From: a virus
Taxonomy: Duplodnaviria; Caudoviricetes
Virus record (IMG/VR): IMGVR_UViG_3300031695_000005
Span: 1 to 63,031 of that record
DNA length: 63,031 nucleotides
Reading direction: 5' to 3' (one strand)
This document shows positions 44 to 63,031 of this stretch, one piece after another; within the stretch, counting starts at the first letter, position 1; each line of letters opens with the position of its first letter. The notes under the pieces are model-generated. The model made no database searches, had not been told where the DNA came from, and saw only the letters and a list, made by a program, of their open reading frames with translations. Made by a program: the position numbers and the translations under genes.

Positions 44-826
44 TTAAATGGTTATCCATGAATCTGGTATAATGTTATTAGTTGGTTCATTTTTACTAAA
101 CCATTGCTTAGGTCCAACTATTTTTCTATTTGGTTTATTATTTAAATAAGCACCCCACCATGAAAATGAAGAGCTTGAAATTATATTATGTGTACATTTA
201 GATTGTAGGTAAAGTTCTACATAATCCTTTTCATTTTCTATAAAAATAAATTTATCTCCAATAAAGTTTTTCTTACACCATTCTATATCATCACTAAATA
301 TTAAATATTTATTTACATCACCAATAGCAGCTATGCCTTTATTAAAATAATCCATTTCCCTAGCTACATGCAAATCATATTTTAAATAATCACCTCGCCT
401 TACATGAATTGAACATGTTGTATTATTAAATAAGTTATCATACCTTTTGAGTTTATCTTTTACAAAATCAGATGGCTGAAACAAATCTAAAATAAAATCT
501 CTATTAGGAAAGTATTTTTCTGACTGAAAAAAACCATCGTATAAAACATTATCCTTAACTACAAAACCTTCAAAGTGAAAAGGTACATCTATTTTATTAT
601 TAGGAGGATTATTTATTCTATTCCAATTAAATTTTTTAAATATCTTTTGATACTCAAATGCATGCTGTAAATCAGGATTATGATGAATATTTCCATTTAA
701 ATGATTAAAGTTTTGCTCTACGTTCCAATATCCAGTTTGAAAATTATTTGCCTTACCTTCATATTCAACAAAAGCAATCTGAAACATCATATTCCCAATG
801 CCTCCTTTTAATCTACATGTTATCAT
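44..826 (-). CDS. Alpha-1,2-fucosyltransferase-like glycosyltransferase (GT11)
   Basis: N-terminal GGIGNMMFQ, GFFQSEKYF, HVRRGDY, FSDDIEWC and SSFSWWGAYL are the hallmark GT11 motifs. Confidence 0.9.
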   Translation of the reverse strand: MITCRLKGGIGNMMFQIAFVEYEGKANNFQTGYWNVEQNFNHLNGNIHHNPDLQHAFEYQKIFKKFNWNRINNPPNNKIDVPFHFEGFVVKDNVLYDGFFQSEKYFPNRDFILDLFQPSDFVKDKLKRYDNLFNNTTCSIHVRRGDYLKYDLHVAREMDYFNKGIAAIGDVNKYLIFSDDIEWCKKNFIGDKFIFIENEKDYVELYLQSKCTHNIISSSSFSWWGAYLNNKPNRKIVGPKQWFSKNEPTNNIIPDSWITI

Positions 827-833
827 TATTCTT

Positions 834-1523
834 TTATTTTTTAATATTATCTTCTCTCATCATAATGGAATAATCTCTATTGCCATTTTGTACATTACTA
901 AAACTTCTTCTTTGCCATGCCATTGGTGGATGAAATGCATATGAATTAATTAATGGCTGGACCCTTGAAGCTAAATATGTATCTACTGCCGTATAAAAGT
1001 TAGGTTCATTTTCTAAAATTGTATTAATAGCTAAATCATAACAAGTATCTTTTATAGCATAACATGTTGTGGTTATTAATCTTTTACAACCTAATACATT
1101 TGCTGCTACTTTATCAGGAATATATTGACCACCTCTTGTTTCATGTATTCCTCCTAAATATAAAAGATCCCAATCATTAGGTACTTGTTTAACTTGTTGA
1201 CTAAATATACTTTGTAAGTTATCAACAAAATCACAATCATCTTCAATTATTAAAACATTTTTCCAATTATTAGCTTTTGCTAGTTTCCATACATTAATAT
1301 GACTCGCCATACAACCAGCAGCACCTGGCCATGATTCTGGTTTAATATGATTCATTTTATCTTTACCAGGGGTATGGACCCAACCCATAGGATTGTTTGC
1401 TATCGCATCATATCTTTCTACTGCTATACCTGCCCTTTGGCATTGGTGAGATACTTCTTTCCACCTATCAGCTCTATGCTTTAAATTTATACATATAATT
1501 TTATCAAAATAACTATTAATCAT
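834..1523 (-). CDS. Glycosyltransferase family 25
   Basis: CINLKHRADR, GCMASH, LIIEDD and WDLLYLG motifs. Confidence 0.88.
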   Translation of the reverse strand: MINSYFDKIICINLKHRADRWKEVSHQCQRAGIAVERYDAIANNPMGWVHTPGKDKMNHIKPESWPGAAGCMASHINVWKLAKANNWKNVLIIEDDCDFVDNLQSIFSQQVKQVPNDWDLLYLGGIHETRGGQYIPDKVAANVLGCKRLITTTCYAIKDTCYDLAINTILENEPNFYTAVDTYLASRVQPLINSYAFHPPMAWQRRSFSNVQNGNRDYSIMMREDNIKK

Positions 1524-1524
1524 A

Positions 1525-3057
1525 TTATTGGTTTAATGTATTAACATCGTTTTTAAATCTCCTGCTTGCCTGGAAATGTTCTATTATAGGATCAGCTGTT
1601 GGATATATATGTTTCATACTATCAAATATAAAAGTATATTCTGGTGGAAGATTCTTTACTGCAAAGGTAGGATCTTCTCCTTTTATTGTATTAATCACAG
1701 TATCTAAATTCCACTGCTCCATCCTAGTTGATGCATTACCTTCATTTATATTAATGTCTCTCCATAATCTACATAATCGTTGTGTCTTGTGATTATTCTC
1801 CATATAAATAGTACCACTTAAACATTCATTTTTTCTCCATTTAAAATCTTGCCATCTTACTGCAATATCACAATTATAATTATTAAATAGAATAGGCATC
1901 TTGTGAAGTACTGCATCGCAGTCAACATATAATAATCTGTGGTTTGGATATTTAATAAGCATATCTAACATAAAGCTAGCTTTAAATCTAGTATTGGCTT
2001 GCCAATTACCTAAAGTATTTACACCTATTATATCTTTTTCTAATCCTAACCTATTTAAGGATTGAATTAAATTCTGAGCCTCTTGTTCATATGGAGTGTT
2101 AACTGTATAATAACCTACCACCATTAAATCTTTTGGTGCATTAACTGGTATTTTACTATTAGGTATTACATTTATTGTTTTATTGTTAGCATGATCTTGG
2201 CTAATTATATCATAAAAAGATTCTGTTTTAATAAAAGGAGATTCAGCTAAAGTACTTTGTGAAGATAAGTTTATAATTTCTTGAGATCCTTTATGAGATT
2301 CTAATGCAGAAAAAAGAATTCTTTTATAATTACCAACACTTTTTCTAAATTGTATTTTATCAAATTCTGTGTATGCTTGGTGGAAATGTGTATGTGCACC
2401 ATCTGATAAATCAAATCCTAATAAGTATATTTTTTTATAACCTAAGAGTAATGCTAATTGAATACCACAATGTCCACTATTGGATCCACTAGCAAAACCA
2501 ACTACATCATTACTAAAACCTTCTATATTATTTGATTCTATAATGCCATTACATTTATGGAGATCTTCATACTCAAGCCCTCTTGTATCTGTAATCATAC
2601 CATCTTTTAATTCCATATAAGGATGAGTCATATTAGCTACAAAATATACATGCTGTGTTTTTTGTCTAATCGATTCAATTGGTAATGTTCCTTTTGCAAA
2701 GTATGAATAATCTGTGGTTATAAAATATTTTGGGTTTTGAATGTATTCAACAGTTTTATTAATTGCAATAGTATCAAAGCCTGATAATAAATTAAAATCA
2801 AATCCACTCAACGAAGGACCTCCACCTACAACAAAACATATGTCATTAGTTATTGCTGGTAACTGATGAGCTTGTAAAAAAGAAATTGGAACTGGTAATG
2901 GAACTAATAAAGGATCCCTCCTAATTCTTTGTGAATGATTTGTAACTTTACTATGAGTCCCATCAGCTCTAACAGTTACTCTAGGAAATTGTTTCTTTTG
3001 ATCACCATAAGATTGTGGTTCATGAACAATTCTTTTTATACTTCTTCTACTTATCAT
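1525..3057 (-). CDS. Two-domain glycosyltransferase: DUF115/Maf/CstII-like domain plus C-terminal GT-A (DxD) domain
   Basis: VVGGGPSL, IAIN, NSG, LLGYKKIYLLGFD and HFH in the N-terminal domain; LYVDCDA and IEHFQASRR in the C-terminal domain. Confidence 0.75.
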   Translation of the reverse strand: MISRRSIKRIVHEPQSYGDQKKQFPRVTVRADGTHSKVTNHSQRIRRDPLLVPLPVPISFLQAHQLPAITNDICFVVGGGPSLSGFDFNLLSGFDTIAINKTVEYIQNPKYFITTDYSYFAKGTLPIESIRQKTQHVYFVANMTHPYMELKDGMITDTRGLEYEDLHKCNGIIESNNIEGFSNDVVGFASGSNSGHCGIQLALLLGYKKIYLLGFDLSDGAHTHFHQAYTEFDKIQFRKSVGNYKRILFSALESHKGSQEIINLSSQSTLAESPFIKTESFYDIISQDHANNKTINVIPNSKIPVNAPKDLMVVGYYTVNTPYEQEAQNLIQSLNRLGLEKDIIGVNTLGNWQANTRFKASFMLDMLIKYPNHRLLYVDCDAVLHKMPILFNNYNCDIAVRWQDFKWRKNECLSGTIYMENNHKTQRLCRLWRDININEGNASTRMEQWNLDTVINTIKGEDPTFAVKNLPPEYTFIFDSMKHIYPTADPIIEHFQASRRFKNDVNTLNQ

Positions 3058-3058
3058 T

Positions 3059-3652
3059 TTAAAATGTTATTTTATTATTATACAACGTAGAATATAAACT
3101 TGTCTTTTCAGGATTACGATATCGTTTAAAAAATAAATTCTCCTTAGGTCCATCATGATCAGTAACATGTAAATGCCCTAATGGATTTCTACTTTTTGTT
3201 GAGCTTTGGAAAAAGTCAAAACCTATTAAATCTAATTGTAAAAAATCACATTGAGTATTAAAGAAATTAAAAGTACTAATTCCAGTAGAAGGTTTAGTAG
3301 AACCTAAATTAGATTTAAGAGTATGGTATATTGATGGATCTATATTATAGGAATTAAAATAAGATAATTTATCACTCCATATAATTGGACTTAAAATGTA
3401 ATCTACTTTATTATCTTTAACAATATTACCTACTCTATCTGCAGACTTAATACCCATAGAAAGTATATTTGTTTTACTTCCTATAGAATCTTTATAATCT
3501 TGTGTTTGTAAATAACCGCTATTAATTCTTACTACAATATCATAAGCATCTATTAATTCTCCATGATTACTTTGGAGTAAACCAGATGAATTACCTACTA
3601 TAATAATTTTCTTTCCTTTGCAATATTGTTTTATGCTTTCTAAGGATACCAT
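3059..3652 (-). CDS. GT29 sialyltransferase-like protein
   Basis: Sialylmotif-L-like IVGNS...GELIDAYDIVVRIN...GSKT, motif-S-like PSTG, IGFDF, and a VS-like HxxxxE (HDGPKE). Confidence 0.75.
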   Translation of the reverse strand: MVSLESIKQYCKGKKIIIVGNSSGLLQSNHGELIDAYDIVVRINSGYLQTQDYKDSIGSKTNILSMGIKSADRVGNIVKDNKVDYILSPIIWSDKLSYFNSYNIDPSIYHTLKSNLGSTKPSTGISTFNFFNTQCDFLQLDLIGFDFFQSSTKSRNPLGHLHVTDHDGPKENLFFKRYRNPEKTSLYSTLYNNKITF

Positions 3653-4059: not shown

Positions 4060-4458
4060 TCACTTTACATCTATAAAACTTTCAGTATCTTCTTTAATAG
4101 GTAATGTTAATGTTAACACACCATTTTCAACCTTTGCTTTAATCTTTTTTGTATTAACATCCTTTGGTAAAGTAAAGAGTTTATCAAATGAACCTAACCA
4201 TATATTATCTTCGTTAGTAGAAATAATGCTTAATTCACCTTTTACCATTTTAACCTTTAGGTCTTCTTTAGTAAATCCTGGAACTGCCATTTCTAATGTC
4301 CAATCTTTTTCGTTTTTAATACAATGATATCCTTTAGATGGTTTAGTAAAGAAATTTTCAAAATCATCCCAAAAAGGATCTTTTAATAAATTATCAATAT
4401 TATCATTAATTCTTCTTGCTTGTGCAACGGGTTTAAATCCGTTTAAAAATGTGTACAT
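4060..4458 (-). CDS. Small heat shock protein (Hsp20)
   Basis: Alpha-crystallin motifs AVPGFTKEDLKV, FTLP and AKVENGVLTLTLP, plus a C-terminal IxV motif. Confidence 0.92.
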   Translation of the reverse strand: MYTFLNGFKPVAQARRINDNIDNLLKDPFWDDFENFFTKPSKGYHCIKNEKDWTLEMAVPGFTKEDLKVKMVKGELSIISTNEDNIWLGSFDKLFTLPKDVNTKKIKAKVENGVLTLTLPIKEDTESFIDVK

Positions 4459-5729: not shown

Positions 5730-6440
5730 TTATTTATTCTTAGATTTTGTTCTTTTATAATTTTCTTCTTCATAGACTTCAATTAAATCATCTACAATTG
5801 GATCTCTGTGATTATGTAATAATGTAAGAGAAGATAGATTTTTTATTTTAGATGATTGGTTGTACAAAAATCTAAAACCTGATTCGCTCTTACCTTTTAA
5901 ATCAACTTGACCATCATCACCACATATAATCATCTTAGATCTTAAACCAACCCTGGTTACAATCATTTCCATTTGATCATTAGTTACGTTTTGAGCCTCG
6001 TCAACTATAACACAACTATCAACAAAGGTTCGGCCTCTCATAAATGAAACTGGTACAATTTCTATTTGTCCACTTTCTATATAAGGTTGTACTCTATCTT
6101 TTCCATATAAACTATACATGTTTTGATAAATTGGTTGTACCCATGGATCCATCTTGGCATGTAAATCACCAGGTAAAAATCCAATTTCTTCTTTTGAAAC
6201 TGTTGGTCTTGTTATAATTATCTTTTCATAATTTCTTCTAAATAATCCATCTAAAGCAACTTGGCATGCTAATAGTGTTTTTCCAGATCCAGCCTTACCT
6301 GCTAATAATGTAATTGTGTTTGTTAATATTACATCCTTTGCTAGTTTCTGTTCTTCATTTAGTTTTAATTTAAATGTTATTGGATTTTTAGGTTTTCTCT
6401 TTTCACGGAAAACTTCATCATCGTAAGTATGTGCAGGCAT
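5730..6440 (-). CDS. phoH: PhoH-like ATPase
   Basis: GKAGSGKT, IGFLPG, FMRGRTF, DEAQN, GDxxQVDL and HRDP. Confidence 0.93.
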   Translation of the reverse strand: MPAHTYDDEVFREKRKPKNPITFKLKLNEEQKLAKDVILTNTITLLAGKAGSGKTLLACQVALDGLFRRNYEKIIITRPTVSKEEIGFLPGDLHAKMDPWVQPIYQNMYSLYGKDRVQPYIESGQIEIVPVSFMRGRTFVDSCVIVDEAQNVTNDQMEMIVTRVGLRSKMIICGDDGQVDLKGKSESGFRFLYNQSSKIKNLSSLTLLHNHRDPIVDDLIEVYEEENYKRTKSKNK

Positions 6441-9969: not shown

Positions 9970-10391
9970 ATTTCTGATATTTTTTCACTGTAAGATTCTA
10001 CAAATACATAGGCAATTCTTAAAAGAAATACCAGTATTAATGTCTTTGTTAAAGATATAATTAATGGCCATGTTTTAAAATATTCTCTGTCAGGAGATAA
10101 TACTAAAAGAAATGAATCTGAATCTGGTATAGGTTCAAATTCTGGTGATACATAATCAGCTATTCCTAATTCTAAGAATAATTTATCATGTTCTCTTAAT
10201 TGCATTAACACGTATCCTTCTTGAGAGACTGGAGTATTTGCTACTTCTTCTGGTAAATTAATAACAGTATAGATTCTACCTACCCAATCAACTCGGAACC
10301 CTTTTTCTAAAAGTTTTACCTGGGCTCCTTTAGCAATCTTTTTAATTTTATTCCAGATTACTAATTCTTTATATAATTTTAATATGTACAT
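9939..10391 (-). CDS. Hypothetical protein with a C-terminal transmembrane helix
   Basis: 150-aa ORF with a hydrophobic segment near the C-terminus. Confidence 0.55.
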   Translation of the reverse strand: MYILKLYKELVIWNKIKKIAKGAQVKLLEKGFRVDWVGRIYTVINLPEEVANTPVSQEGYVLMQLREHDKLFLELGIADYVSPEFEPIPDSDSFLLVLSPDREYFKTWPLIISLTKTLILVFLLRIAYVFVESYSEKISEIWNEMITLVF

Positions 10392-10414
10392 GGTTTTGTT
10401 TGTTAGTTATGTAT

Positions 10415-11056
10415 TTATGCTTCTGAAAATACTTTCATACTTTCTAGTTGTTTTCTGACTATTTTCCTTCCTCTAAAAATCCTGTTCTTAACAGTTTGTA
10501 AGTTTATGCCTTTTTCGCTATCAGACATAATGTCTAAAATATCATTATAAGATTTTTTATTTAAGAATCTTTCTTCCATAAATCTTTTATACATTGGAGG
10601 TAAAGCCTTTATTGCTTCTGTTGTTAATCTTACCTTTTCAACTAAAAGATGTTCAGCTGCCCAGTAATCATCTTCAGTAGACCACGGCATTCCATTATTA
10701 GGTTCTGCGTTAGGTAATAAAAATGTTGGTGGATCAATACCTTTATCAGTAAATGCATTCATACTTACTTTTCTATTTCTATATCTAATCCAACCTATGC
10801 ATTCATTATAAGCAATACGATATGCCCACGTTGTAATTTGATAATCTTCATTATATTGATCAATTTTTAAATACACTGTAGTTAAAGTTGTAGATACAAT
10901 ATCTTCAGTAACATTAGGATCTTTTACAATATTATTTACATATGATCTTAAGCCTGGTCTCATCTTAGCATATAGTTCATTATAAACACTTTCTTTTCTT
11001 GTCTTTTTAAACTCTAATGCAAGTTCTTTGTACGTCTTTTTTGTTTTTTTAGCCAT
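10415..11056 (-). CDS. ECF-type sigma-70 factor (phage middle sigma candidate)
   Basis: Region 2 (EDIVS, TTWAYRIAYNECI) and region 4 (AIKALPP, SYNDI, TVKNRIFRGRK). Confidence 0.9.
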   Translation of the reverse strand: MAKKTKKTYKELALEFKKTRKESVYNELYAKMRPGLRSYVNNIVKDPNVTEDIVSTTLTTVYLKIDQYNEDYQITTWAYRIAYNECIGWIRYRNRKVSMNAFTDKGIDPPTFLLPNAEPNNGMPWSTEDDYWAAEHLLVEKVRLTTEAIKALPPMYKRFMEERFLNKKSYNDILDIMSDSEKGINLQTVKNRIFRGRKIVRKQLESMKVFSEA

Positions 11057-11576
11057 TTATAAAATCTTTTAAAGTTAGGTAATTTACTGGTGAATATCCC
11101 CAAAAGTCAGTACATACGTTAAATCTACTTTCAATTGTAAGATTGGTTTTATGAGAGAATACTGTATGACCATGCATATGAATAGTTCCAGAATCTTTGC
11201 CATTCCATACCGCTAATGGATAATGACAAATAATACTATCAAAATCAATTAATTCAACAATTGATTTCTTCATAAATTCTGCCTTAGGAAATTCATCTAT
11301 GATTTCTTCCAATGCTTCATCTTGGCTACCTTTTAAAAAATAGATTCTACCATTTAATTTTTTAAGTACCTTACGAGCAGTTGTTGGATCCCATGCAAAA
11401 TTTCCTAAATGAAATACCACATCTTTTTTCTTTACTTTTTTATTCCAATTTTTAATTAAAGCAGAATTCATATCTTCTACATTATCAAACGGTCTGTTTG
11501 CAATTTGAAGAATCTGTGGTCTACCAAACCATGTATCGGATGTAATATAAAAATCTTTTGGTATTTCTTTATTCAT
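11049..11576 (-). CDS. Calcineurin-like metallophosphoesterase fold, probably catalytically degenerate
   Basis: Family scaffold is clear, but the motifs read SDTWFG, HLGNF, KGSQD and HGHTV. Confidence 0.8.
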   Translation of the reverse strand: MNKEIPKDFYITSDTWFGRPQILQIANRPFDNVEDMNSALIKNWNKKVKKKDVVFHLGNFAWDPTTARKVLKKLNGRIYFLKGSQDEALEEIIDEFPKAEFMKKSIVELIDFDSIICHYPLAVWNGKDSGTIHMHGHTVFSHKTNLTIESRFNVCTDFWGYSPVNYLTLKDFING

Positions 11577-11613
11577 ATAATTAGTTTACAGTGTATTGTT
11601 TCATATAATACAG

Positions 11614-11645
11614 TATAAATATAAACAATTTAATTGGGATCTGAA
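11614..11645 (-). promoter_or_regulatory. Putative early promoter TTCAG-N12-TTnnT-TATnnT-TATA
   Basis: Same 32-nt architecture at 20549..20580 and 37956..37987. Confidence 0.55.
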
Positions 11646-11671
11646 AACTTTTTAAGAACTTTTTTCAAATA

Positions 11672-12874
11672 TTATGAAAATCTTTTCTTATCTTTAGCTA
11701 AAGTCTTAGCAATTAGCTCTTTTGAATAATTATTTAATTCTTTCATTGACTGAGAATCAATAGGTTTTTTATAAAAGTCTTCATAAATACCTTTGTACAT
11801 TTCTACTGTACTATCAAAAGGAACGCCTGGTTGAGCATTTGATTCAATAACATAAACTTTTCCATCTTTACTTTTCATTACATCAAAACATATAAAAGGA
11901 AACTTTTCATATATCTTGGAAAATCTTTCTAATACTTTAGCATAATCCTTAGGTAAATCTTTTATATCTCTTCTTTCATATTGAAATGACATTTCTTCAT
12001 TAGCTCCACCTTTACCAGTTTTAGCCTTTTCATTATCTGGTGTTCTTGCCATCCAAAAGATAGGCTTACCATTAAAATTCATAAAACGATGTTCTTCGGC
12101 TTTATCAACAAACTCTGAATATGTATCAAAGATCTTTTCATCAGCATCTTCCAATAATTCTGGTTTATCAAATATTTGAATACCCATTCCTGAATGACCT
12201 TCTGATGGTTTAGCAATAATAGGAAACTTTAAATTGCTTAATGCTTCATTTTTACTAAATACTGTTTTAGGTATTGCATCATCACCTTCAACTAATTTAT
12301 GAAATTCCTTTTTAGAACCAGATAATTTAATATCTTTAGGATGATTATAAATATTTTCTTCTTTGATCCTACCTTCTTTTAATAATTGATTAACAATATC
12401 ACTTTGGTAATTTAATATAGGATAATCAGGATTAATATCAAGCTTATCTATATTATTCTCTGTAATTTGAGTAAAGTATTTATCACCAGCAAAACCTTTA
12501 TAACTCCACCATCTTTGTCCACTGCTTCTTTTAGTTGCAAGATAAACTTTTTTTAATGCCGAATCATTTGCTGCTGATTCCTTTAGTAAATCTTCTCTAC
12601 CTAATTGTCTATATACTGCTTTTCTGGTTTTTTCCATCTTTTCAGCATACTTAGGATCACTCTTCTTATTAAAAACTACCTGTTGATTTAAAGATCCAGT
12701 TATTTTTCTTAAATCTTTATTTCTAGTTTTAATTAACCATGCGGCCAAATCCTTAATAGAAAGATCTTTAAATCTACCTTCAGCATCTGGTGCATCAGAG
12801 TCATGCCACTCTGGTGCTCCTTTAGGTTTTTTCTCTAATAAGAATTGTTCAAAAAGTTTTAGATATTTCAACAC
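11672..12874 (-). CDS. RimK-like ATP-grasp ligase with an N-terminal capsid-targeting-like leader
   Basis: FPIIAKPSEGHSGMGI, EHRF and FDVM...VIESNAQPG; N-terminus LKLFEQFLLE; late promoter at 12890..12897. Confidence 0.8.
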   Translation of the reverse strand: MLKYLKLFEQFLLEKKPKGAPEWHDSDAPDAEGRFKDLSIKDLAAWLIKTRNKDLRKITGSLNQQVVFNKKSDPKYAEKMEKTRKAVYRQLGREDLLKESAANDSALKKVYLATKRSSGQRWWSYKGFAGDKYFTQITENNIDKLDINPDYPILNYQSDIVNQLLKEGRIKEENIYNHPKDIKLSGSKKEFHKLVEGDDAIPKTVFSKNEALSNLKFPIIAKPSEGHSGMGIQIFDKPELLEDADEKIFDTYSEFVDKAEEHRFMNFNGKPIFWMARTPDNEKAKTGKGGANEEMSFQYERRDIKDLPKDYAKVLERFSKIYEKFPFICFDVMKSKDGKVYVIESNAQPGVPFDSTVEMYKGIYEDFYKKPIDSQSMKELNNYSKELIAKTLAKDKKRFS

Positions 12875-12888
12875 GAAGATTTATTTTA

Positions 12889-13779
12889 TTATATATCGTT
12901 GCCTCTACTGTTAAGTGCTAACCATTTAAATAATGAATCATCTATTGCATCTGCATTAACATTATGGGAACCTAAATTAATATCTAATTCTAAAAGATTT
13001 AAATTATCAGTAGGATGGCCTTTTATGGTAATTAGATTTTTATTTAAAGGTGGATAAGACATATGAGAAAAAGGTGTAGTTAACATTTCTTTTACTAAAT
13101 TAAAATGTCTTTCATAAATATGTAAAGAATGAACGATATGAGTATAAGAACCCATTTTTAAATCAGGATAAGTTAATCTTAAATGTTTTAACATTTGCTG
13201 TTGTAATAAACAAAAGAATGCTACATCAGTTGCTGTACCTAATACTAAATCATTAGATCTCATATCAACTGTAAAGTTTAATCTATTATCTCTGATTTGA
13301 AATATACCATTAAGAGTACATACAAAATCTTTATTACCTTTCCATTGGTGTGATGGTTTATTAAAATGAATAATTGATTGCCTTGAGTCTTTATCTTCAA
13401 TCAAAGAATCTAATGCCCATTGGTATTGATTTCTACCATCAGAAAGAGGTTCGTTAAATATAAGATTACCATAAGCAGAATTTACAGTACCGTCACCATT
13501 ATCTAATTGTTTCCAGAATTTAGAATACTTACTTATAAAATCAATATCCTTTCTTCCTGTAAAATACCATATAGTTTCACCAGCAATATATTTAAATTGG
13601 CTACTTCTTTTTTCATTTTCATAAAGTGGAAAATAAGGATCATCAATAACTAAAGCTGCATTACAAATTTCTTTAATTTCCATACCTCTTGGTTTAGAAG
13701 TATAATCAGGATTCTCTAAAGTATCTATTAATGCTTTTTCATAAACTTCTGCAAACGTATCTCCTCTATATGTTCTCAT
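12889..13779 (-). CDS. Thymidylate synthase superfamily enzyme, dCMP hydroxymethylase (T4 gp42) type
   Basis: ETIWY, NSAYG, DSRQ, DFVCT (catalytic Cys), MRSNDLVLGTATD (Asp at the specificity position) and SLHIYERHF. Confidence 0.8.
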   Translation of the reverse strand: MRTYRGDTFAEVYEKALIDTLENPDYTSKPRGMEIKEICNAALVIDDPYFPLYENEKRSSQFKYIAGETIWYFTGRKDIDFISKYSKFWKQLDNGDGTVNSAYGNLIFNEPLSDGRNQYQWALDSLIEDKDSRQSIIHFNKPSHQWKGNKDFVCTLNGIFQIRDNRLNFTVDMRSNDLVLGTATDVAFFCLLQQQMLKHLRLTYPDLKMGSYTHIVHSLHIYERHFNLVKEMLTTPFSHMSYPPLNKNLITIKGHPTDNLNLLELDINLGSHNVNADAIDDSLFKWLALNSRGNDI

Positions 13780-13951
13780 TCTTTTTATTTTTACGAGCCT
13801 TGACTCTTTTATACGCTTCTTCTATACAATCGCCATATTCTGTATATTTCCATTGTGGTTCTAGTGCTCTCATTTTTTTAGATTCCTCAAAGACATCATT
13901 ATTAAGTCCTTCATAGTGAGCATCATACATTATATCTTCAGCTTTTGACAT
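13766..13951 (-). CDS. Hypothetical protein
   Basis: 61-aa ORF overlapping both neighbours in the operon. Confidence 0.55.
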   Translation of the reverse strand: MSKAEDIMYDAHYEGLNNDVFEESKKMRALEPQWKYTEYGDCIEEAYKRVKARKNKKNENI

Positions 13952-14562
13952 TACTTAAACATGTTTAATTGTTTACTTTCTCCTGTTATTGTATTTTTAT
14001 GTTTTAGAAATTCTGTTATAATATGAGAAACTTCTATTGCACTCATTGTACCAACATTAATATGTAACTTATTTTTAATAGTACTTAATCGATGAGCTCT
14101 TGTAAATCCATCAACCTCAGCTTTAACTTCTTCTTCATTACCATAAAAGGATTTACCATCATCTCTTTTTAATATAGTATGTGGATCATTAGTTAATGTA
14201 ATTAAATAAAGATCTTCTCTTAATGCCCTTGTATATTTTTTTTCTATATCAAAAACAAAATCACCAGAGTAACCTCGATATAATGGTGAATAAACACTCT
14301 CACCTAAATGAGATCTATTAAAAATAAGATTAATGTCTAAATCATCTTTTAAATTTCCAACTTTTGATTTCATCATTAATTGAAACATCGTTTCATATAA
14401 CTTATTTGAATAAGTTGCATGTTTTTCTTTGTCATCTTTAAAAGGTAATGATGAATAATGAAGCTTATGAAAAACATGATCACTCATATTTTTAATAATT
14501 AAATCTTGTTGTGTATCTTTGCCAACATTATCAGTACCTTCTATTATAATAAATTTACTCAT
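13951..14562 (-). CDS. Thymidylate kinase-like dNMP kinase
   Basis: P-loop IIEGTDNVGKDT and NRSHLGESVYSPLYR. Confidence 0.8.
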   Translation of the reverse strand: MSKFIIIEGTDNVGKDTQQDLIIKNMSDHVFHKLHYSSLPFKDDKEKHATYSNKLYETMFQLMMKSKVGNLKDDLDINLIFNRSHLGESVYSPLYRGYSGDFVFDIEKKYTRALREDLYLITLTNDPHTILKRDDGKSFYGNEEEVKAEVDGFTRAHRLSTIKNKLHINVGTMSAIEVSHIITEFLKHKNTITGESKQLNMFK

Positions 14563-14580: not shown

Positions 14581-15060
14581 TTAAAAGTTAGAATTGTTTA
14601 TTACAATATCATAATCAGTAAAATTATCAAAATCCAATTCATCAGCAGTAATTCTTCTTTCTATCTTATCATTAAGATCACCTCTTAGTTGTAATCTTTG
14701 CTTTCGGATTGCTAAAGGTATATCTAAATAAATGATAGTACAATCTTTTCTATCAATAGGATTAACTTCTGCAACTCCTTTAGGTGTCATTACAAATAGA
14801 TTACATGTGGTTTTGAATTGCTCATAGCTTGTACCATAAAACCATCCATTAAATTCAACATATTCATACCAATAATTATTATCAGCAAAAGCTTTAAAAT
14901 CTTTTTCAGATATAAAATAATAATCTTGGCCATCAATTTCCCCTTCTCTAGGAGGTCTAGTTGTATATGATGTACCGTATGTAAAACCTCTACCTTCTAA
15001 AACCTTTCTCATATGATCTTTTCCAGCAGCGGCCTTTCCTATTAATATAATTTTATTCAT
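14581..15060 (-). CDS. gmk: Guanylate kinase-like protein
   Basis: GKAAAGKD, SYTTRPPREGEIDGQDYYF and FYGT. Confidence 0.88.
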   Translation of the reverse strand: MNKIILIGKAAAGKDHMRKVLEGRGFTYGTSYTTRPPREGEIDGQDYYFISEKDFKAFADNNYWYEYVEFNGWFYGTSYEQFKTTCNLFVMTPKGVAEVNPIDRKDCTIIYLDIPLAIRKQRLQLRGDLNDKIERRITADELDFDNFTDYDIVINNSNF

Positions 15061-21456: not shown

Positions 21457-21924
21457 TTAAGTAAGTGAAATAATTATATTATTAACAGTATCGCCTTCTG
21501 CAATCTGCTCAATTAATTCCATTCCATCAATGACATGACCAAATGTTGTATGACCTGGGTCTAAATGTTGAGTTCCTCTTCGGCTTAAACAAATAAAGAA
21601 TGCACCCATTGCAGTATGCGGTGATCCAGTATTAGCAGCACTTAAAACGCCATAAGCATGAAAGTTATTATTCTTTTTTCTTCTAGGCATTTCTAATTCA
21701 TCATATAAATATGGATAATCACCATTGGGGAGATCGCCTTCTTTATTCTTTGGGCCTAGCTGTACCATAAAGCCTGGTATAACTCTATCAAAACTTTGGC
21801 CATTATATTTACCATCCTCTGCTTTAGCAATAAAATTTCCAGTGTTTATTGGAGTTTCATCATAAAGACGGAATGTAATATCTCCTTTATCCATTTTAAA
21901 GGTAGCGGTGTATTTAGTATTCAT
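21457..21924 (-). CDS. Cyclophilin-type peptidyl-prolyl isomerase
   Basis: FDRVIPGFMVQ, FFI and HLDPGHTTFGHVIDGM. Confidence 0.9.
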   Translation of the reverse strand: MNTKYTATFKMDKGDITFRLYDETPINTGNFIAKAEDGKYNGQSFDRVIPGFMVQLGPKNKEGDLPNGDYPYLYDELEMPRRKKNNNFHAYGVLSAANTGSPHTAMGAFFICLSRRGTQHLDPGHTTFGHVIDGMELIEQIAEGDTVNNIIISLT

Positions 21925-58671: not shown

Positions 58672-59796
58672 TTAGAACAAGCTTGTAGTATAAATTAAGT
58701 TTCGATTAAATCCTTTAAATCCCATTGCTGTTACTACACGATTTATTGGATCTAATATTGTTTTTTCAAATTGTCTATCATGATCGATCTGTGGTGCAAA
58801 CTCATAAGGATATTCTCCTGGAGCAAATGCAAATACCTCACATGATTTATCAGTTGAAAAATACATTTTACATTTTTCACCATTTCCTAAAGGTTGATAT
58901 TTACCTTTAGATGTAGAATTATTTAATAAGTAATTATGATAACCTGCAGATCTTACGCCGATTGGACATCTTGATGCAAATTCAAAAGTTTCATAATCAT
59001 TAACAATATACTTTTGATAATTATTTACTTTTCTTGAGAAACATATTTGATCTACATTTGCTAATTTAAATTGCCTTTTAATATCTTTAAGTAATGAGGC
59101 AAAATCTTTCATATCTAATTTTTCAACAGAAAAGATATATGTTAATAAATCTTTTAGTTTTTCTCTAGCAAATATTGGAGTTGACGATTGAATAATTTCA
59201 AATCCTTTAGAACTAATTTTAGATAGATCTTCATAATGAATATCTGGATCTTTCCATACAATATTTTGCATGTACTTTTTCTTTGCTAACCATATTGCAT
59301 TTTTAGCAATACTTTCTAATTCAAAAGATAAAAAGTTTTCAGAATTATTATCGTCTGCATATCTTTGGAGAATCTTTTCTAAATAACCATTTACTCTAAC
59401 TTTATATAACTTTAGAATAAATTCCTTATCATCTCCATCAAAACCTTCTGATTTTGCTATGACTTCATCAAACTTAACATAAACTGAATCTGTATCAATA
59501 TAAATACCTACTGGGTTTTCTATTCTACCGGTTACAGTAATTCCCATTTCTTTATGAGCAGCAAGATCTTTATGCCAATATTGACTGAAGTATCTATTTA
59601 ACAATTCCTCGGTATAAAGAATTGCATCTTTACCTTGTAATGTTATTGTTTCTGCAATGTCTATATTAAAGAAATAGAAATAAGGATTACCAAATGCACC
59701 ATAGATAGAGTTAAGCATTAACTTAACAGCTTGTTCATAATTGTAAAACTTACTAGCTTCTTTGTTTATTTGTTGTAACTCAGTTAGTTCATTCAT
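58672..59796 (-). CDS. Family B DNA polymerase, C-terminal subunit only (split gp43)
   Basis: Begins just before motif B KLMLNSIYG; has YIDTDS, KKKY and KGFE; lacks the exonuclease domain and motif A. Confidence 0.9.
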   Translation of the reverse strand: MNELTELQQINKEASKFYNYEQAVKLMLNSIYGAFGNPYFYFFNIDIAETITLQGKDAILYTEELLNRYFSQYWHKDLAAHKEMGITVTGRIENPVGIYIDTDSVYVKFDEVIAKSEGFDGDDKEFILKLYKVRVNGYLEKILQRYADDNNSENFLSFELESIAKNAIWLAKKKYMQNIVWKDPDIHYEDLSKISSKGFEIIQSSTPIFAREKLKDLLTYIFSVEKLDMKDFASLLKDIKRQFKLANVDQICFSRKVNNYQKYIVNDYETFEFASRCPIGVRSAGYHNYLLNNSTSKGKYQPLGNGEKCKMYFSTDKSCEVFAFAPGEYPYEFAPQIDHDRQFEKTILDPINRVVTAMGFKGFNRNLIYTTSLF

Positions 59797-60944: not shown

Positions 60945-62216
60945 TTAAAAAGTACCATTAACTTTATACTTTTTCTTTGGTGTTGCGCCAAGTTCTTCAG
61001 TTACTAATATTTTATGAGTGGTATTATCTTGCTTCATGAATTTAAAGTTTGTCATTTTAGCATTACCTTCACAAAACTTCTTAACCTCAACCGCCATATC
61101 CATTGCAGTAGTTGCTGGTACGTTTTGAGCAATATGATTAACTTGCCTTGCATTTTTAATACCAAAGTCTAATGGTAATCCCATAAGATGTAACATTTCT
61201 CTAATATTTAAGTACCTATTTTCTGTTGGGTGTACACCATTAAACATATTTCTACCAATAAGAGCTGAAAAACTTTCATCAAAGAAGTGTGGAGATGCAT
61301 CCCAATAACCCATCCCTTGGCCTGTTTTAAATTTTTGATGTTCTAACATATCACCAAAAGATTTTGTTGATTTTTTATTAGAAAAACCTTGCTTATGATA
61401 TTTCTTATCTAACCACTGTATGCATTCATCCAATAATTCATTCTTTTCTAAATATTGCGCAATTGTACCTTTACCAAATTTCTTAGCAAAGTCAGCATGA
61501 TTTAATCCTTCTTTTTCTAAAACAAATTCATAAGGTTTATAATGATCGGTTACTTTACCTTCAACCATAAACATATCTTGTAAGGTTGCATCTTCTGGTA
61601 CTTCAGCAAGATAATCTATAAGATGTTTCTTTTCTCTAAACTTCCATCCTAGCATAGGTACTGTTGGGGTATTCCAAAAGAAATAAAATGTTCTTATTCT
61701 TCTTTGTGGTATTCCATGCAATTCCGTATTAGTTTTAATTAAAGAAAAACTATAACCATATTTTTCACCGATGGCTTTAAGATTATTAACTACACCTTCT
61801 CCCATTTTAGTAAAAAGCCCTGGAGCATTTTCTCCCCACAATACTTTAGGTTTAACATTCTCTAAAACATATTCTGCTGAATTATACATCCATTGATTTT
61901 GAACTGCATCAGATCCTCTAGATGATGCACTACCACTAGCAGAATTTAATTGTGATAAACCTGCACAAGGGCAAACAGAATTTACAAAATCTACTTGTTC
62001 AAATGTTTTATTAGGAATATCTAATTCTTCATGGTCTATTCTATACATAGGTACGTCAGGCCAATAATCTTCTATATGGCTTTCGTTAGCAGCAAAAGCT
62101 TCATAGCTTAAATGAAATGCTGGTAAATTACCTGTTGCTTTATTACAACCTATTGCACTACCTCCAATTAATGGAATCATAGTACCCCATTTTAATTCTT
62201 CTTTTTCTTTATTCAT
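60945..62216 (-). CDS. C5-cytosine methyltransferase-fold protein with an atypical SAM-binding motif
   Basis: Motif IV CPCAGLS, motif VI GENAP, motif VIII PQRRIRTF, motifs IX/X RE..LMGLP and AQNVP; motif I reads IPLIGG. Confidence 0.8.
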   Translation of the reverse strand: MNKEKEELKWGTMIPLIGGSAIGCNKATGNLPAFHLSYEAFAANESHIEDYWPDVPMYRIDHEELDIPNKTFEQVDFVNSVCPCAGLSQLNSASGSASSRGSDAVQNQWMYNSAEYVLENVKPKVLWGENAPGLFTKMGEGVVNNLKAIGEKYGYSFSLIKTNTELHGIPQRRIRTFYFFWNTPTVPMLGWKFREKKHLIDYLAEVPEDATLQDMFMVEGKVTDHYKPYEFVLEKEGLNHADFAKKFGKGTIAQYLEKNELLDECIQWLDKKYHKQGFSNKKSTKSFGDMLEHQKFKTGQGMGYWDASPHFFDESFSALIGRNMFNGVHPTENRYLNIREMLHLMGLPLDFGIKNARQVNHIAQNVPATTAMDMAVEVKKFCEGNAKMTNFKFMKQDNTTHKILVTEELGATPKKKYKVNGTF

Positions 62217-62221
62217 TAGTT

Positions 62222-63031
62222 TTATATTTTTACTTTTTCAATTTCTAAATCTTCCATAAAGGTAGACGGATTAATATTACCTTCTTTTACTTCATTTTCT
62301 AAATACGTTATAGTTTCTTTTATTGTATCTGTTATATCTTTCTTAGGCTCCCATCCCATTGATTTTGCTTTAGAAATATCTCCATAAGAATTTAATGCTT
62401 CTCCTGCAATTGCATCATAATGATCAAAATCAACCTTTACTCCCATTTCATCTGCAATCATATTTTTAAGATCCATTAAATTAGTCATTTTACCAGTTCC
62501 TAAATTAAATGTTTGATTAGCAGTATCCTCATTTTCCATACATAAGATATGGAATGCATTAACATCCGATACATCAATATAATCTCTAGCTTTCATATAA
62601 TCTCCAAATACAATAGGATTATGCTTACCCATTATTCTTAAAATAAATCCAGCAAATACTGGTGGTATAGTTCTTTCATAATCTTGTAATGGTCCTGCTA
62701 CATTAAAATATCTAAGTGCAGTATAATTTAATCCTTTTGTTCTACTATAAGATTCTGCTAAAAGTGCTAAGCATGCTTTGGTTGTAGAATATATTGTTGT
62801 TGGATCTGATTGATTTTCATTAAAACCACCCCATGTTGGCATTTCACAATTTTCATAAACAGCAGAAGTTTCACTAAAAATAATTCTTTTTACATTTGCC
62901 TTAACACAACCATTCATTATATTTATGCTTCCTAAAATATTATTATCTACGGCTTCATAAACATTTTCATGGCAATCATATATTGATACCAGGCCTGCAA
63001 AATGATAAACATAATCAGGTGCAAAGTTTTT
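62222..63031 (-). CDS. NAD-dependent nucleotide-sugar epimerase/dehydratase (5' end outside the window)
   Basis: Frame open to the window edge (VYHFAGL); YSTTK catalytic motif, LRYFNVAGP, RDYIDVSDV and FNLGTG. Confidence 0.9.
   Translation of the reverse strand, partial: KNFAPDYVYHFAGLVSIYDCHENVYEAVDNNILGSINIMNGCVKANVKRIIFSETSAVYENCEMPTWGGFNENQSDPTTIYSTTKACLALLAESYSRTKGLNYTALRYFNVAGPLQDYERTIPPVFAGFILRIMGKHNPIVFGDYMKARDYIDVSDVNAFHILCMENEDTANQTFNLGTGKMTNLMDLKNMIADEMGVKVDFDHYDAIAGEALNSYGDISKAKSMGWEPKKDITDTIKETITYLENEVKEGNINPSTFMEDLEIEKVKI

Follow-up and report, generated by a model that had tools for sequence, protein, structure and literature searches.

What does a protein with the fold of a DNA cytosine-C5 methyltransferase (MTase) do in a marine giant phage when the loop expected to hold its methyl donor has been rewritten? 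This question is raised by a stretch of 63,031 bases from an IMG/VR contig, here called the window (the whole stretch that was analysed, an estimated ~21% of the genome, with a GC content of ~30%), in which an MTase-like gene lies directly downstream of an epimerase gene. An earlier note on this DNA had proposed that the product keeps the residues that activate cytosine and has a remodelled cofactor site, and that it may use a donor other than S-adenosylmethionine (SAM) or act on already modified cytosine, perhaps attaching a sugar-derived group. As the best explanation of our results, the gene is predicted to encode an active DNA cytosine-C5 enzyme. Its function would be, tentatively and with a probability of roughly 0.42, the SAM-dependent methylation of cytosines that escaped hydroxymethylation, as an accessory of phage modules for 5-hydroxymethylcytosine (hmC) that contain a T4 gp42-type deoxycytidylate (dCMP) hydroxymethylase. 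The genes of the window on which the argument turns are the following:

60945–62216, minus strand: C5-MTase-fold gene of the PLxGG subfamily, 423 aa (open reading frame, ORF; PF00145, E 3e-18; AlphaFold2 model with pLDDT 91.4 and pTM 0.88; VIA-align)
62222–63031, minus strand: GalE-like NAD-dependent uridine diphosphate (UDP)-hexose 4-epimerase of the short-chain dehydrogenase/reductase (SDR) type, 5' end truncated by the window edge (PF01370, E 4.4e-31; phrog_540, E 1.9e-47)
12889–13779, minus strand: T4 gp42-type dCMP hydroxymethylase homologue (PF00303), ~47 kb from the MTase-like gene

The ATG of the MTase-like ORF occupies positions 62214–62216 and the TAA of the SDR ORF upstream of it positions 62222–62224, which leaves the spacing of 5 nt (62217–62221) to the nucleoside diphosphate (NDP)-sugar epimerase that had been described before.

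A C5-methyltransferase fold with a rebuilt cofactor half

The AlphaFold2 model, built from 42 sequences, is a confident one, and the protein is predicted to adopt the C5-MTase fold that the earlier note had assigned to it. VIA-align matched the model to HaeIII (Z 25.5, root-mean-square deviation 3.2 Å, 275 residues), DNMT1 (Z 25.4), HhaI (Z 24.4, 296 residues) and CmoX (8yf3, Z 24.1), with deviations of 3.2–3.5 Å across HaeIII and HhaI; the structural alignments span model residues 3–387, with Foldseek E-values from 6e-14 to 1e-12. In the N-terminal part, the model shows strand 1 (residues 10–13), a loop (14–18), helix A (19–28), strand 2 (34–37) and helix B (39–51), and an all-helical insert is found at residues ~185–330. 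Sequence comparisons covered less of the protein. PF00145 matched with 66.8 bits (cut-off 22) over residues 56–358 only, corresponding to positions 44–300 of the 324 of the profile; phmmer and the family profile, run against the PDB, aligned only motifs IV–VIII and IX–X, without motif I; and hhalign against E. coli Dcm aligned residues 68–178 only, with a probability of 20% and again without motif I.

The register of the N-terminal end was obtained from the structural alignments, which give ranges with their start points and not residue pairs: model residue 6 corresponds to HhaI 10, residue 5 to CmoX 16, and residue 4 to mouse DNMT1 1138. Assuming that the first strand is ungapped, I14 therefore lies opposite Phe-25 of CmoX and L16 opposite the first Gly of FxGxG, the same register of IPLIGG against FxGxGG as had been read from the sequence. 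Motif I (FxGxG) is the SAM-binding loop of C5-MTases. The motif positions in the window are the following:

62160–62177, minus strand: motif I position, IPLIGG, residues 14–19 (translation)
62082–62096, minus strand: F41..N44-E45, all facing the same side of the helix that follows strand 2, candidate stand-ins for the motif II contacts (conservation, AlphaFold2 model)
62034–62036, minus strand: Asp61, motif III position after strand 3 (translation); mostly Asp in the family, but Asn, Arg or Pro in some lineages
61953–61970, minus strand: motif IV, PCAGLS, residues 83–88, with the catalytic Cys84 and an Ala at the site of the canonical Gln (PCQ) (translation)
61824–61832, minus strand: motif VI, ENA, residues 129–131, with Glu129 (translation)
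61692–61706, minus strand: motif VIII, QRRIR, residues 171–175, with Arg173 and Arg175 (translation)
61116–61127, minus strand: motif X, QNVP, residues 364–367, with Asn365 at the position of HhaI N304 and CmoX R350 (translation; excerpts of PMC12783734)

The catalytic motifs IV (Pro-Cys), VI (Glu-Asn-x) and VIII (QxRxR) are present, and P83, C84, E129, N130, Q171, R173, R175, Q364 and N365 are invariant in the 42 aligned sequences, so that the earlier description of the cytosine-activating residues as intact was borne out. The replacement of FxGxGG by IPLIGG was likewise found in the translation and throughout the family. In the N-terminal half, P15, L16, G18, P32, F41 and N44 are invariant in the 42 aligned members, as is W109, while G19 is nearly invariant and position 45 is always Glu or Asp. 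By structure-based spacing, the motif II acid would be expected at about residues 36–39, where the window protein has E39; the conserved N44-E/D45 pair lies 5–6 residues beyond that point, one turn into helix B. The motif II region is thus atypical, as had been noted, with F41 and N44 being invariant there and not the acid. For comparison, excerpts of PMC12783734 describe in CmoX a motif I residue, Phe-25, that stacks on the adenine, and a canonical motif II acid, Glu-47, that binds the ribose hydroxyls 22 residues after it. Taken at the level of the alignment, the cofactor half of the protein reads as rebuilt next to cytosine-activating residues that are invariant.

As CmoX is itself a phage protein of this fold, the possibility that the window protein is another C5-carboxymethyltransferase using carboxy-SAM was considered. 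It is favoured by the presence of 8yf3 among the structural matches and by the cyanophage origin of CmoX (excerpts of PMC12783734). However, 8yf3 is matched only weakly at the sequence level (E 1.5e-4, C-terminal part only), and the signatures that the same excerpts give for CmoX, an SPPC motif and an Arg at the HhaI N304 position (R350), are CPCA and Asn365 in the window protein. Membership of the CmoX group was rejected on these two signatures, and this reading appears very improbable to us.

An almost purely phage-borne branch

Of 2760 candidates from a word-indexed protein search, 1024 had E ≤ 1e-3. An exhaustive profile search, in which 50%-identity representatives were counted, gave 4438 proteins at E ≤ 1e-3, with 466 of them reaching E ≤ 1e-30. 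Motifs were counted in 255 retrieved proteins with a length of 350 aa or more, and the N-terminal region upstream of motif IV is present in 200 of them. PLxGG was found in 191 of these 200, and ENAP (239), QxRxR (252) and QNVP (233) in nearly all of the 255; the motif was also present in 78 of the 80 viral-locus ORFs described below, another one being cut by the end of its contig and the last one having a long N-terminal extension. According to these signatures, the proteins form a distinct and almost purely phage-borne branch defined by PLxGG, PCA, ENA and QNVP. The presence of PLxGG in 191/200 members, together with the new set of invariant N-terminal residues (P15, L16, G18, P32, F41, N44), argues that the cofactor half is not decaying.

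A screen of prokaryotes with the two signature patterns of the family, using one genome per species for 185,579 species, yielded 17 confirmed loci, every one of them on a contig of a metagenome-assembled genome (MAG) with the same phage modules. A gp42-type gene was found in 13 of the 17, and no restriction-modification context was detected at any of them. These contigs (L172 to L188) are labelled as Pacearchaeota, Planctomycetes, Rhodobacteraceae and others and carry UvsX, family-B polymerase and gp42-type modules; most likely, they are phage contigs that were binned into cellular MAGs.

In addition, relatives ~55% identical and with the same PLxGG motif were found in six transcripts from a copepod, Neocalanus flemingeri, and many marine relatives of 600–770 aa (one of 1462 aa) have C-terminal tails rich in Lys and Glu (P0042, P0036, P0060, P0070, P0121 and P0122 are among these copepod or long relatives). 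One of them, P0070, contains a zf-CXXC domain (29.7 bits against a Pfam cut-off of 26.5), and other long relatives show weak C2H2 matches. The copepod copies look like the consequence of transfer from phage to animal. By analogy, an enzyme in an animal nucleus, with one relative carrying a CXXC finger beside it, would probably act on ordinary cytosine with a ubiquitous cofactor, and it is mainly because of these eukaryotic relatives that SAM methylation is kept as our first choice for the phage enzymes.

No description of the PLxGG subfamily, or of a C5-MTase tied to a dCMP hydroxymethylase, was found in the literature within the scope of this search, which did not extend to supplementary tables, and no biochemical data were found there for any member of the family. 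In the main text of the MetaGPA paper, the word "methyltransferase" does not appear, although its supplementary Pfam tables, outside the scope of this statement, may bear on the subfamily.

Association with gp42-type hydroxymethylase modules

In order to describe the genomic company of the MTase-like gene, the best 80 of 574 confirmed viral loci, belonging to 21 lineages at 60% identity, were compared by clustering the ORFs within 10 kb, and 30 recurrent neighbour gene clusters were annotated. The main ones are the following:

Thymidylate synthase (TS) homologue: 15/21 lineages, within 10 kb
SDR epimerase: 9/21 lineages, often adjacent
dCMP deaminase: 9/21 lineages
FkbM methyltransferase: 8/21 lineages
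GT1-like glycosyltransferase: 7/21 lineages
AGT-family DNA alpha-glucosyltransferase (PF11440): 6/21 lineages (E 2.7e-33; phrog alpha-glucosyltransferase, E 3e-62)
HMUDK_hel-like kinase: 5/21 lineages, directly upstream
myo-Inositol-1-phosphate synthase: 5/21 lineages

Further recurrent neighbours were sugar-1-phosphate nucleotidyltransferases, a deoxynucleoside monophosphate (dNMP) kinase-like gene, a thymidine kinase and a dUTPase. The site could be read in 29 of 30 sequences of the TS homologues, and all 29 carry the gp42 signature, with D[FY]xCT, MRSxD and an Asp at the ThyA N177 position. When whole contigs or genomes were considered, a gp42-type gene accompanied the MTase-like gene in 18 of the 21 lineages, 15 of them within 10 kb and 3 elsewhere. 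In the lineage of the window, it lies ~47–55 kb away and is also found on contig 3300008107_000017, which is in both locus lists, and two jumbo-phage lineages (G002 and G003, of 389 and 360 kb, 98% and 100% complete) hold it elsewhere in the genome; the remaining three lineages are known only from fragments that are 9–26% complete. The check proposed in the earlier note asked whether IPLIGG-type MTases occur together with gp42-like genes and epimerases, and its outcome was strongly positive (18/21 and 9/21 lineages, respectively).

The MTase-like gene is usually flanked on one side by the gene of a DNA glycosyltransferase or HMUDK-like kinase and on the other by that of a GalE-like epimerase. 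The backbones on which the pairing with gp42-type genes occurs comprise phages with UvsX and a family-B polymerase, phages with a Pol III alpha subunit, jumbo phages of 360–389 kb and S-TIM5, with different gene orders. Among cultured phages, the gene is paired with a gp42-type gene in Pseudoalteromonas phage vB_Psh_XG4, and in cyanophage S-TIM5 the MTase-like gp080 lies 2.4 kb from gp076, annotated as a thymidylate synthase and with an Asp at the specificity position. This S-TIM5 protein (locus L083, 5763–6599) is ThyA-like overall (Pfam E 4.8e-54), yet the Asp stands at the ThyA N177 position, so that it is more likely to methylate or hydroxymethylate dCMP than to produce deoxythymidylate. 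The TIM5-like genes listed in a figure legend of PMC10087341 include a DNA methylase, a DNA alpha-glucosyltransferase and a 2OG-Fe(II) oxygenase.

In the reverse direction, an MTase-like gene was detected within 10 kb at only 4 of 80 gp42-type viral loci, and in the phage collection a gp42-type TS (E ≤ 1e-18) was present in 704 records and the MTase-like family in 6. Because the pairing with gp42 holds in 18/21 lineages but only 4/80 gp42-type loci carry the MTase-like gene, this gene is read, from its genomic distribution, as an optional accessory of hmC modules, as glycosyltransferases are.

This pattern bears directly on a simpler explanation, an ordinary orphan SAM-dependent 5-methylcytosine (5mC) methylase acting against restriction, whose N-terminal motifs have drifted and whose gp42 company reflects shared descent of a genomic island. 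The source annotations do read "site-specific DNA-cytosine methylase", phage modification genes tend to cluster according to the MetaGPA paper, and the eukaryotic relatives presumably function without the module. Against this, the pairing persists over very different backbones and gene orders, and drift leaves the new invariant N-terminal residues unexplained. The controls also differ: a TS-family match within 10 kb was found at none of 42 Dcm-like viral loci, a narrow set whose proteins all share 64% identity or more with E. coli Dcm, and the genome of phiKp_17, a T4-like phage with a canonical MTase, has a single TS-family match (E 1.9e-95), which is presumably of the ThyA type. The persistence of the pairing on unrelated phage backbones is what chiefly disfavours the orphan methylase, which we consider unlikely.

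Two observations concern the architecture of the modules. First, in four Pol III-alpha phage loci that are otherwise syntenic (L035 compared with L030, L043 and L049), the block upstream of the MTase-like gene, ~6–10 kb of each locus, has been swapped. In L035, it contains nucleotidyltransferases and an AGT gene, and in the other three, an inositol-phosphate synthase, FkbM, a small ORF and an HMUDK-like kinase, with the MTase-like gene and the SDR keeping their place in both types; the block of L030, L043 and L049 suggests an undescribed phosphate- or inositol-linked base modification. Second, L037 and L039 each contain two tandem MTase-like paralogues of ~400 aa apiece (positions 9974–12400 in both). 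No TET or other dioxygenase was detected among the 30 annotated neighbour gene clusters. No dCTPase was identified in the modules either: their dUTPase-family gene resembles ordinary trimeric dUTPases, and DUF6378, considered as a candidate dCTPase, gave no match in the PDB.

The hydroxymethylase and the epimerase of the window

The presence of a dCMP-hydroxymethylase-type enzyme in this genome, already suspected before, was supported by the product of 12889–13779. Its best PDB matches are the T4 dCMP hydroxymethylase (E 9e-25) and MilA, compared with E 6e-12 for the best ThyA, and it scores below every ThyA equivalog cut-off. The catalytic Cys is kept, DFVCT is aligned with DFMCT and TATD with RND(Y), and an Asp occupies the ThyA N177 position. 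A 5-hydroxy-dCMP synthase of the RB69/DLP3 type was considered for this TS homologue and rejected, as its MRSND keeps the Asp at the ThyA D169 position, where 5-hydroxy-dCMP synthases have an Asn (excerpts of PMC13326640); this Asp is also present in all 29 neighbour TS homologues that were read.

Regarding the epimerase, the window SDR contains the catalytic YSTTK, and its full-length homologue in locus L006 shows TGGAGFVG and matches the UDP-glucose 4-epimerase 4zrm (E 8e-42). In general, the full-length SDR homologues best match UDP-glucose or UDP-GlcNAc 4-epimerases (4zrm; 6dnt, E 1e-48; WbgU). The best NCBIfam model is TIGR01179 galE (E 9e-41), with 139.8 bits, a score that lies below the equivalog cut-off of 262.3 and does not fix the exact sugar. 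The protein is thus assigned by homology as an ordinary GalE-like UDP-hexose 4-epimerase. The gene order in the lineage of the window is nucleotidyltransferase, nucleotidyltransferase, GT-like gene, SDR and MTase-like gene, and, because nucleotidyltransferases and glycosyltransferases share these modules, the epimerase is best explained as the supplier of a UDP-sugar donor to their DNA glycosyltransferases. No chemical tie between the epimerase and the MTase-like enzyme emerged. The idea that the epimerase passes a sugar-derived group, such as an aldehyde or a ketone, on to this enzyme found no support, as both SDRs tested are GalE-like and are explained by the NDP-sugar transferases and glycosyltransferases of the same modules.

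Proposed methylation of leftover cytosine and its alternatives

In the mechanism that we favour, the enzyme would flip a cytosine out of the phage DNA after replication, Cys84 would attack C6 while Glu129 and Arg173/Arg175 grip the base, as their conservation suggests, and the C5 carbanion would receive the methyl group of SAM, bound in a rewired pocket possibly formed by I14, G18-G19, F41, N44-E45, W109, Asp61 and Asn365. The substrate would be cytosines built in as plain deoxycytidine (dC) instead of hydroxymethyl-dC. With no dCTPase identified in the modules, residual cytosine is possible. As the outcome, every cytosine of the virion would be substituted at C5, either as 5mC or as hmC decorated by the nearby glycosyltransferases and kinases, with the GalE-like epimerase providing UDP-sugar for the decoration of hmC and not for the MTase-like enzyme. 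An adenosyl cofactor would be compatible with the Asn at the HhaI N304 position, with F41, N44, E/D45 and W109, with the near-invariant G19 and with the mostly kept Asp61.

A considerable number of observations weigh against SAM methylation. The canonical SAM contacts read as lost: FxGxG was found in none of the 200 family proteins with an N-terminus, the position of its first Gly being occupied by Leu, rarely by Lys or Gln; the position of the motif II acid varies in the family (E, N, S, K, D, Q, P, T); and Asp61 gives way to N, R or P in some lineages. TIGR00675 (NCBIfam) matched residues 67–356 with 44.5 bits, below its cut-off of 100.65, compared with 326 bits over the whole profile for a canonical phage MTase used as control (P0333, from Slopekvirus phiKp_17). 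A profile of residues 1–90 from 27 family members retrieved no C5-MTase from the PDB at E ≤ 10, the sole row being an unrelated flavoprotein subunit (E 0.99). Furthermore, the invariant PCA mirrors the Q82A change of M.HhaI, for which excerpts of PMC3526304 report an activity with AdoMet (SAM) ~16-fold lower and with an extended analogue 4-fold higher, a change that favours an extended cofactor. A plain methylase should also be of use without gp42, yet no lineage with sufficient sequence is without a gp42-type gene, and no member of the family was found in isolate cellular genomes among the 185,579 prokaryote species; plain methylation leaves this restriction to gp42 phages unexplained. Finally, SAM methylation presupposes that these phages leave some cytosine unreplaced.

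The dependency on gp42, the position next to a kinase or glycosyltransferase and the rebuilt pocket would be explained by a different reading, in which the covalent C5-MTase mechanism, with Cys84 at C6, is kept and the chemistry does not involve SAM, or the substrate is hmC or phospho-hmC, the enzyme being the core step of a new cytosine hypermodification. In one variant, hmC or phospho-hmC would lose its leaving group, and the exocyclic methylene formed would capture another nucleophile; in the other, a larger or different group would be moved from a non-SAM or reoriented cofactor. C5-MTases without SAM reportedly add aldehydes to cytosine and couple thiols to hmC in vitro, in the work of Liutkeviciute et al. 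of 2009 and 2011. The dependency on gp42 in one direction only (18/21 lineages against 4/80 loci) is like that of known hmC-decorating enzymes. The gene is directly downstream of an AGT-type glucosyltransferase in six lineages or of an HMUDK_hel-like kinase in five, it holds its place while the decorating module is swapped, and it occurs as tandem paralogues. The invariants of the rebuilt cofactor half suggest a defined new site, and PCA and ENA place smaller residues near the transferable group. A precedent is also provided by CmoX, a phage C5-MTase homologue that uses another cofactor (excerpts of PMC12783734).

In contrast, no recurrent candidate for making a donor was found nearby, as the recurrent neighbours are accounted for by the provision of nucleotides and NDP-sugars and by the transfer of glycosyl or phosphoryl groups. 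The copepod-type relatives keep PLxGG in animal transcripts, presumably without a gp42-type pathway, and P0070 adds a CXXC finger; the motif X Asn and the mostly conserved Asp61 also fit an adenosyl cofactor. On balance, this reading is possible and somewhat less probable than SAM methylation. The stricter claim that the PLxGG enzymes are not methyltransferases, and carry out either a thymidylate-synthase-type chemistry at the DNA level on hmC or kinase-activated hmC or a non-methyl transfer from the rebuilt pocket, seems to us a little more doubtful still. Thus, of the earlier proposal of a non-SAM donor or a pre-modified cytosine, the rebuilt cofactor half and the co-occurrence with gp42 speak in its favour, whereas nothing shows that SAM is unbound, with F41, N44-E/D45, W109 and Asp61 lining the region, and the CXXC relative points to ordinary cytosine.

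Relation to known systems

Compared with M.HhaI, M.HaeIII and E. coli Dcm, the PLxGG proteins have the same fold and retain the catalytic Pro-Cys, the ENV Glu, QxRxR, the motif IX RE and the motif X Asn. They differ in having PLxGG for FxGxG, PCA for PCQ, ENA for ENV and QNVP for GN(A/S)V, in the lack of conservation of the motif II acid, in the all-helical insert at ~185–330, in their tie to gp42-type genes and in that no isolate cellular genome was found to encode them. With the engineered M.HhaI Q82A/Y254S/N304A (excerpts of PMC3526304), they have in common the PCA motif, a natural counterpart of Q82A beside the transferable group; in contrast, the family keeps the Asn at N304 and the engineered enzyme keeps the canonical motifs I–III.

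CmoX resembles them as a phage-encoded C5-MTase homologue with an altered cofactor site in a multi-gene hypermodification route. However, CmoX keeps Phe-25, Glu-47, Phe-48 and Asp-69 for the adenosyl moiety and gains Arg-350 (excerpts of PMC12783734), whereas the PLxGG family changes the adenosyl motifs and keeps the Asn, and its partners are a gp42-type TS and glycosyltransferases instead of CmoA and CmoY. In the phage route formed by a C5-MTase, TET and a glycosyltransferase (excerpts of PMC8256090), a C5-MTase fold is also part of a cluster that ends in a glycosylated 5-substituted cytosine. There, the MTase makes 5mC and TET oxidises it, whereas in the PLxGG modules hmC would be expected from the nucleotide route, with no dioxygenase among the annotated clusters.

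The likeness to the hmC system of T4 lies in modules with a gp42-type TS of the same Cys/Asp signature, a dNMP kinase-like gene, a dCMP deaminase and AGT-family glucosyltransferases. No gene with a C5-MTase fold is known from the hmC pathway of T4 and its relatives.

Few DNA enzymes are understood as well as the C5-MTases, whose SAM motifs are treated as defining. Here, a large branch found in nature, with 466 or more 50%-identity clusters at E ≤ 1e-30, keeps the covalent machinery and has swapped the cofactor motifs for another invariant set, and it is nearly confined to modules for hmC and glycosylation in widely differing marine phages. If SAM is still used, the family shows how far a SAM site can be rebuilt, in a "belt and braces" arrangement with 5mC covering the gaps in hmC. 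If it is not used, the family would represent a new DNA-modifying activity with uses as an epigenetic tool, like the CmoX and TET-phage discoveries, and a non-methyl transfer would mean an undescribed cytosine hypermodification widespread in marine phages. The cultured carriers S-TIM5 and vB_Psh_XG4 make the question directly testable, and the copepod copies are a separate lead for DNA modification in animals.

Other genes of the window

DNA nearly identical to the window was found in 20 marine sequencing runs from 10 studies, all of them stored as assembled contigs, and the nearest relative of its UvsX is that of an uncultured 462-kb phage (55%). On the same strand and 3' of the MTase-like gene are an unannotated ORF of 249 aa, an ORF of 83 aa, a family-B polymerase fragment and a RecA/UvsX-like protein, so that the placement of the gene at the head of a replication cluster was a fair description. 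Two further genes of the window were assigned as follows:

58672–59796, minus strand: family-B DNA polymerase ORF (Pfam positions 143–384 of 453)
13951–14562, minus strand: dNMP (thymidylate) kinase-like gene adjoining the hydroxymethylase, a pair that recurs in other lineages (PF02223, weak; phrog_761, E 3e-12)

The family-B polymerase of the window seems to be split into separate genes; homologous loci also show ORFs for parts of this polymerase, with variable lengths and in some cases interrupted by extra genes.

Around the hydroxymethylase, on the minus strand, a 400-aa ATP-grasp-like gene (11672–12874) with weak matches to D-Ala-D-Ala ligase and RimK-type proteins lies 14 nt downstream of it, and a phosphoesterase (11049–11576) and a guanylate kinase (14581–15060) are also found in its flanks. 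Such an ATP-grasp ligase could serve a further modification step. AGT (PF11440), dCMP deaminase and dUTPase were searched for and not found in the window, which covers ~21% of the genome, the AGT search being one without a positive control.

In addition, four glycosyltransferase-type genes lie in a row at 44–3652 (minus strand), encoding a GT11 fucosyltransferase-like protein, a GT25 protein, an MptE-like protein of 510 aa and a GT29 sialyltransferase-like protein, with DNA or host surface sugars as candidate targets. Finally, auxiliary genes on the minus strand encode an Hsp20 small heat-shock protein (4060–4458), PhoH (5730–6440), a sigma-70-type factor (10415–11056) and a cyclophilin-type prolyl isomerase (21457–21924).

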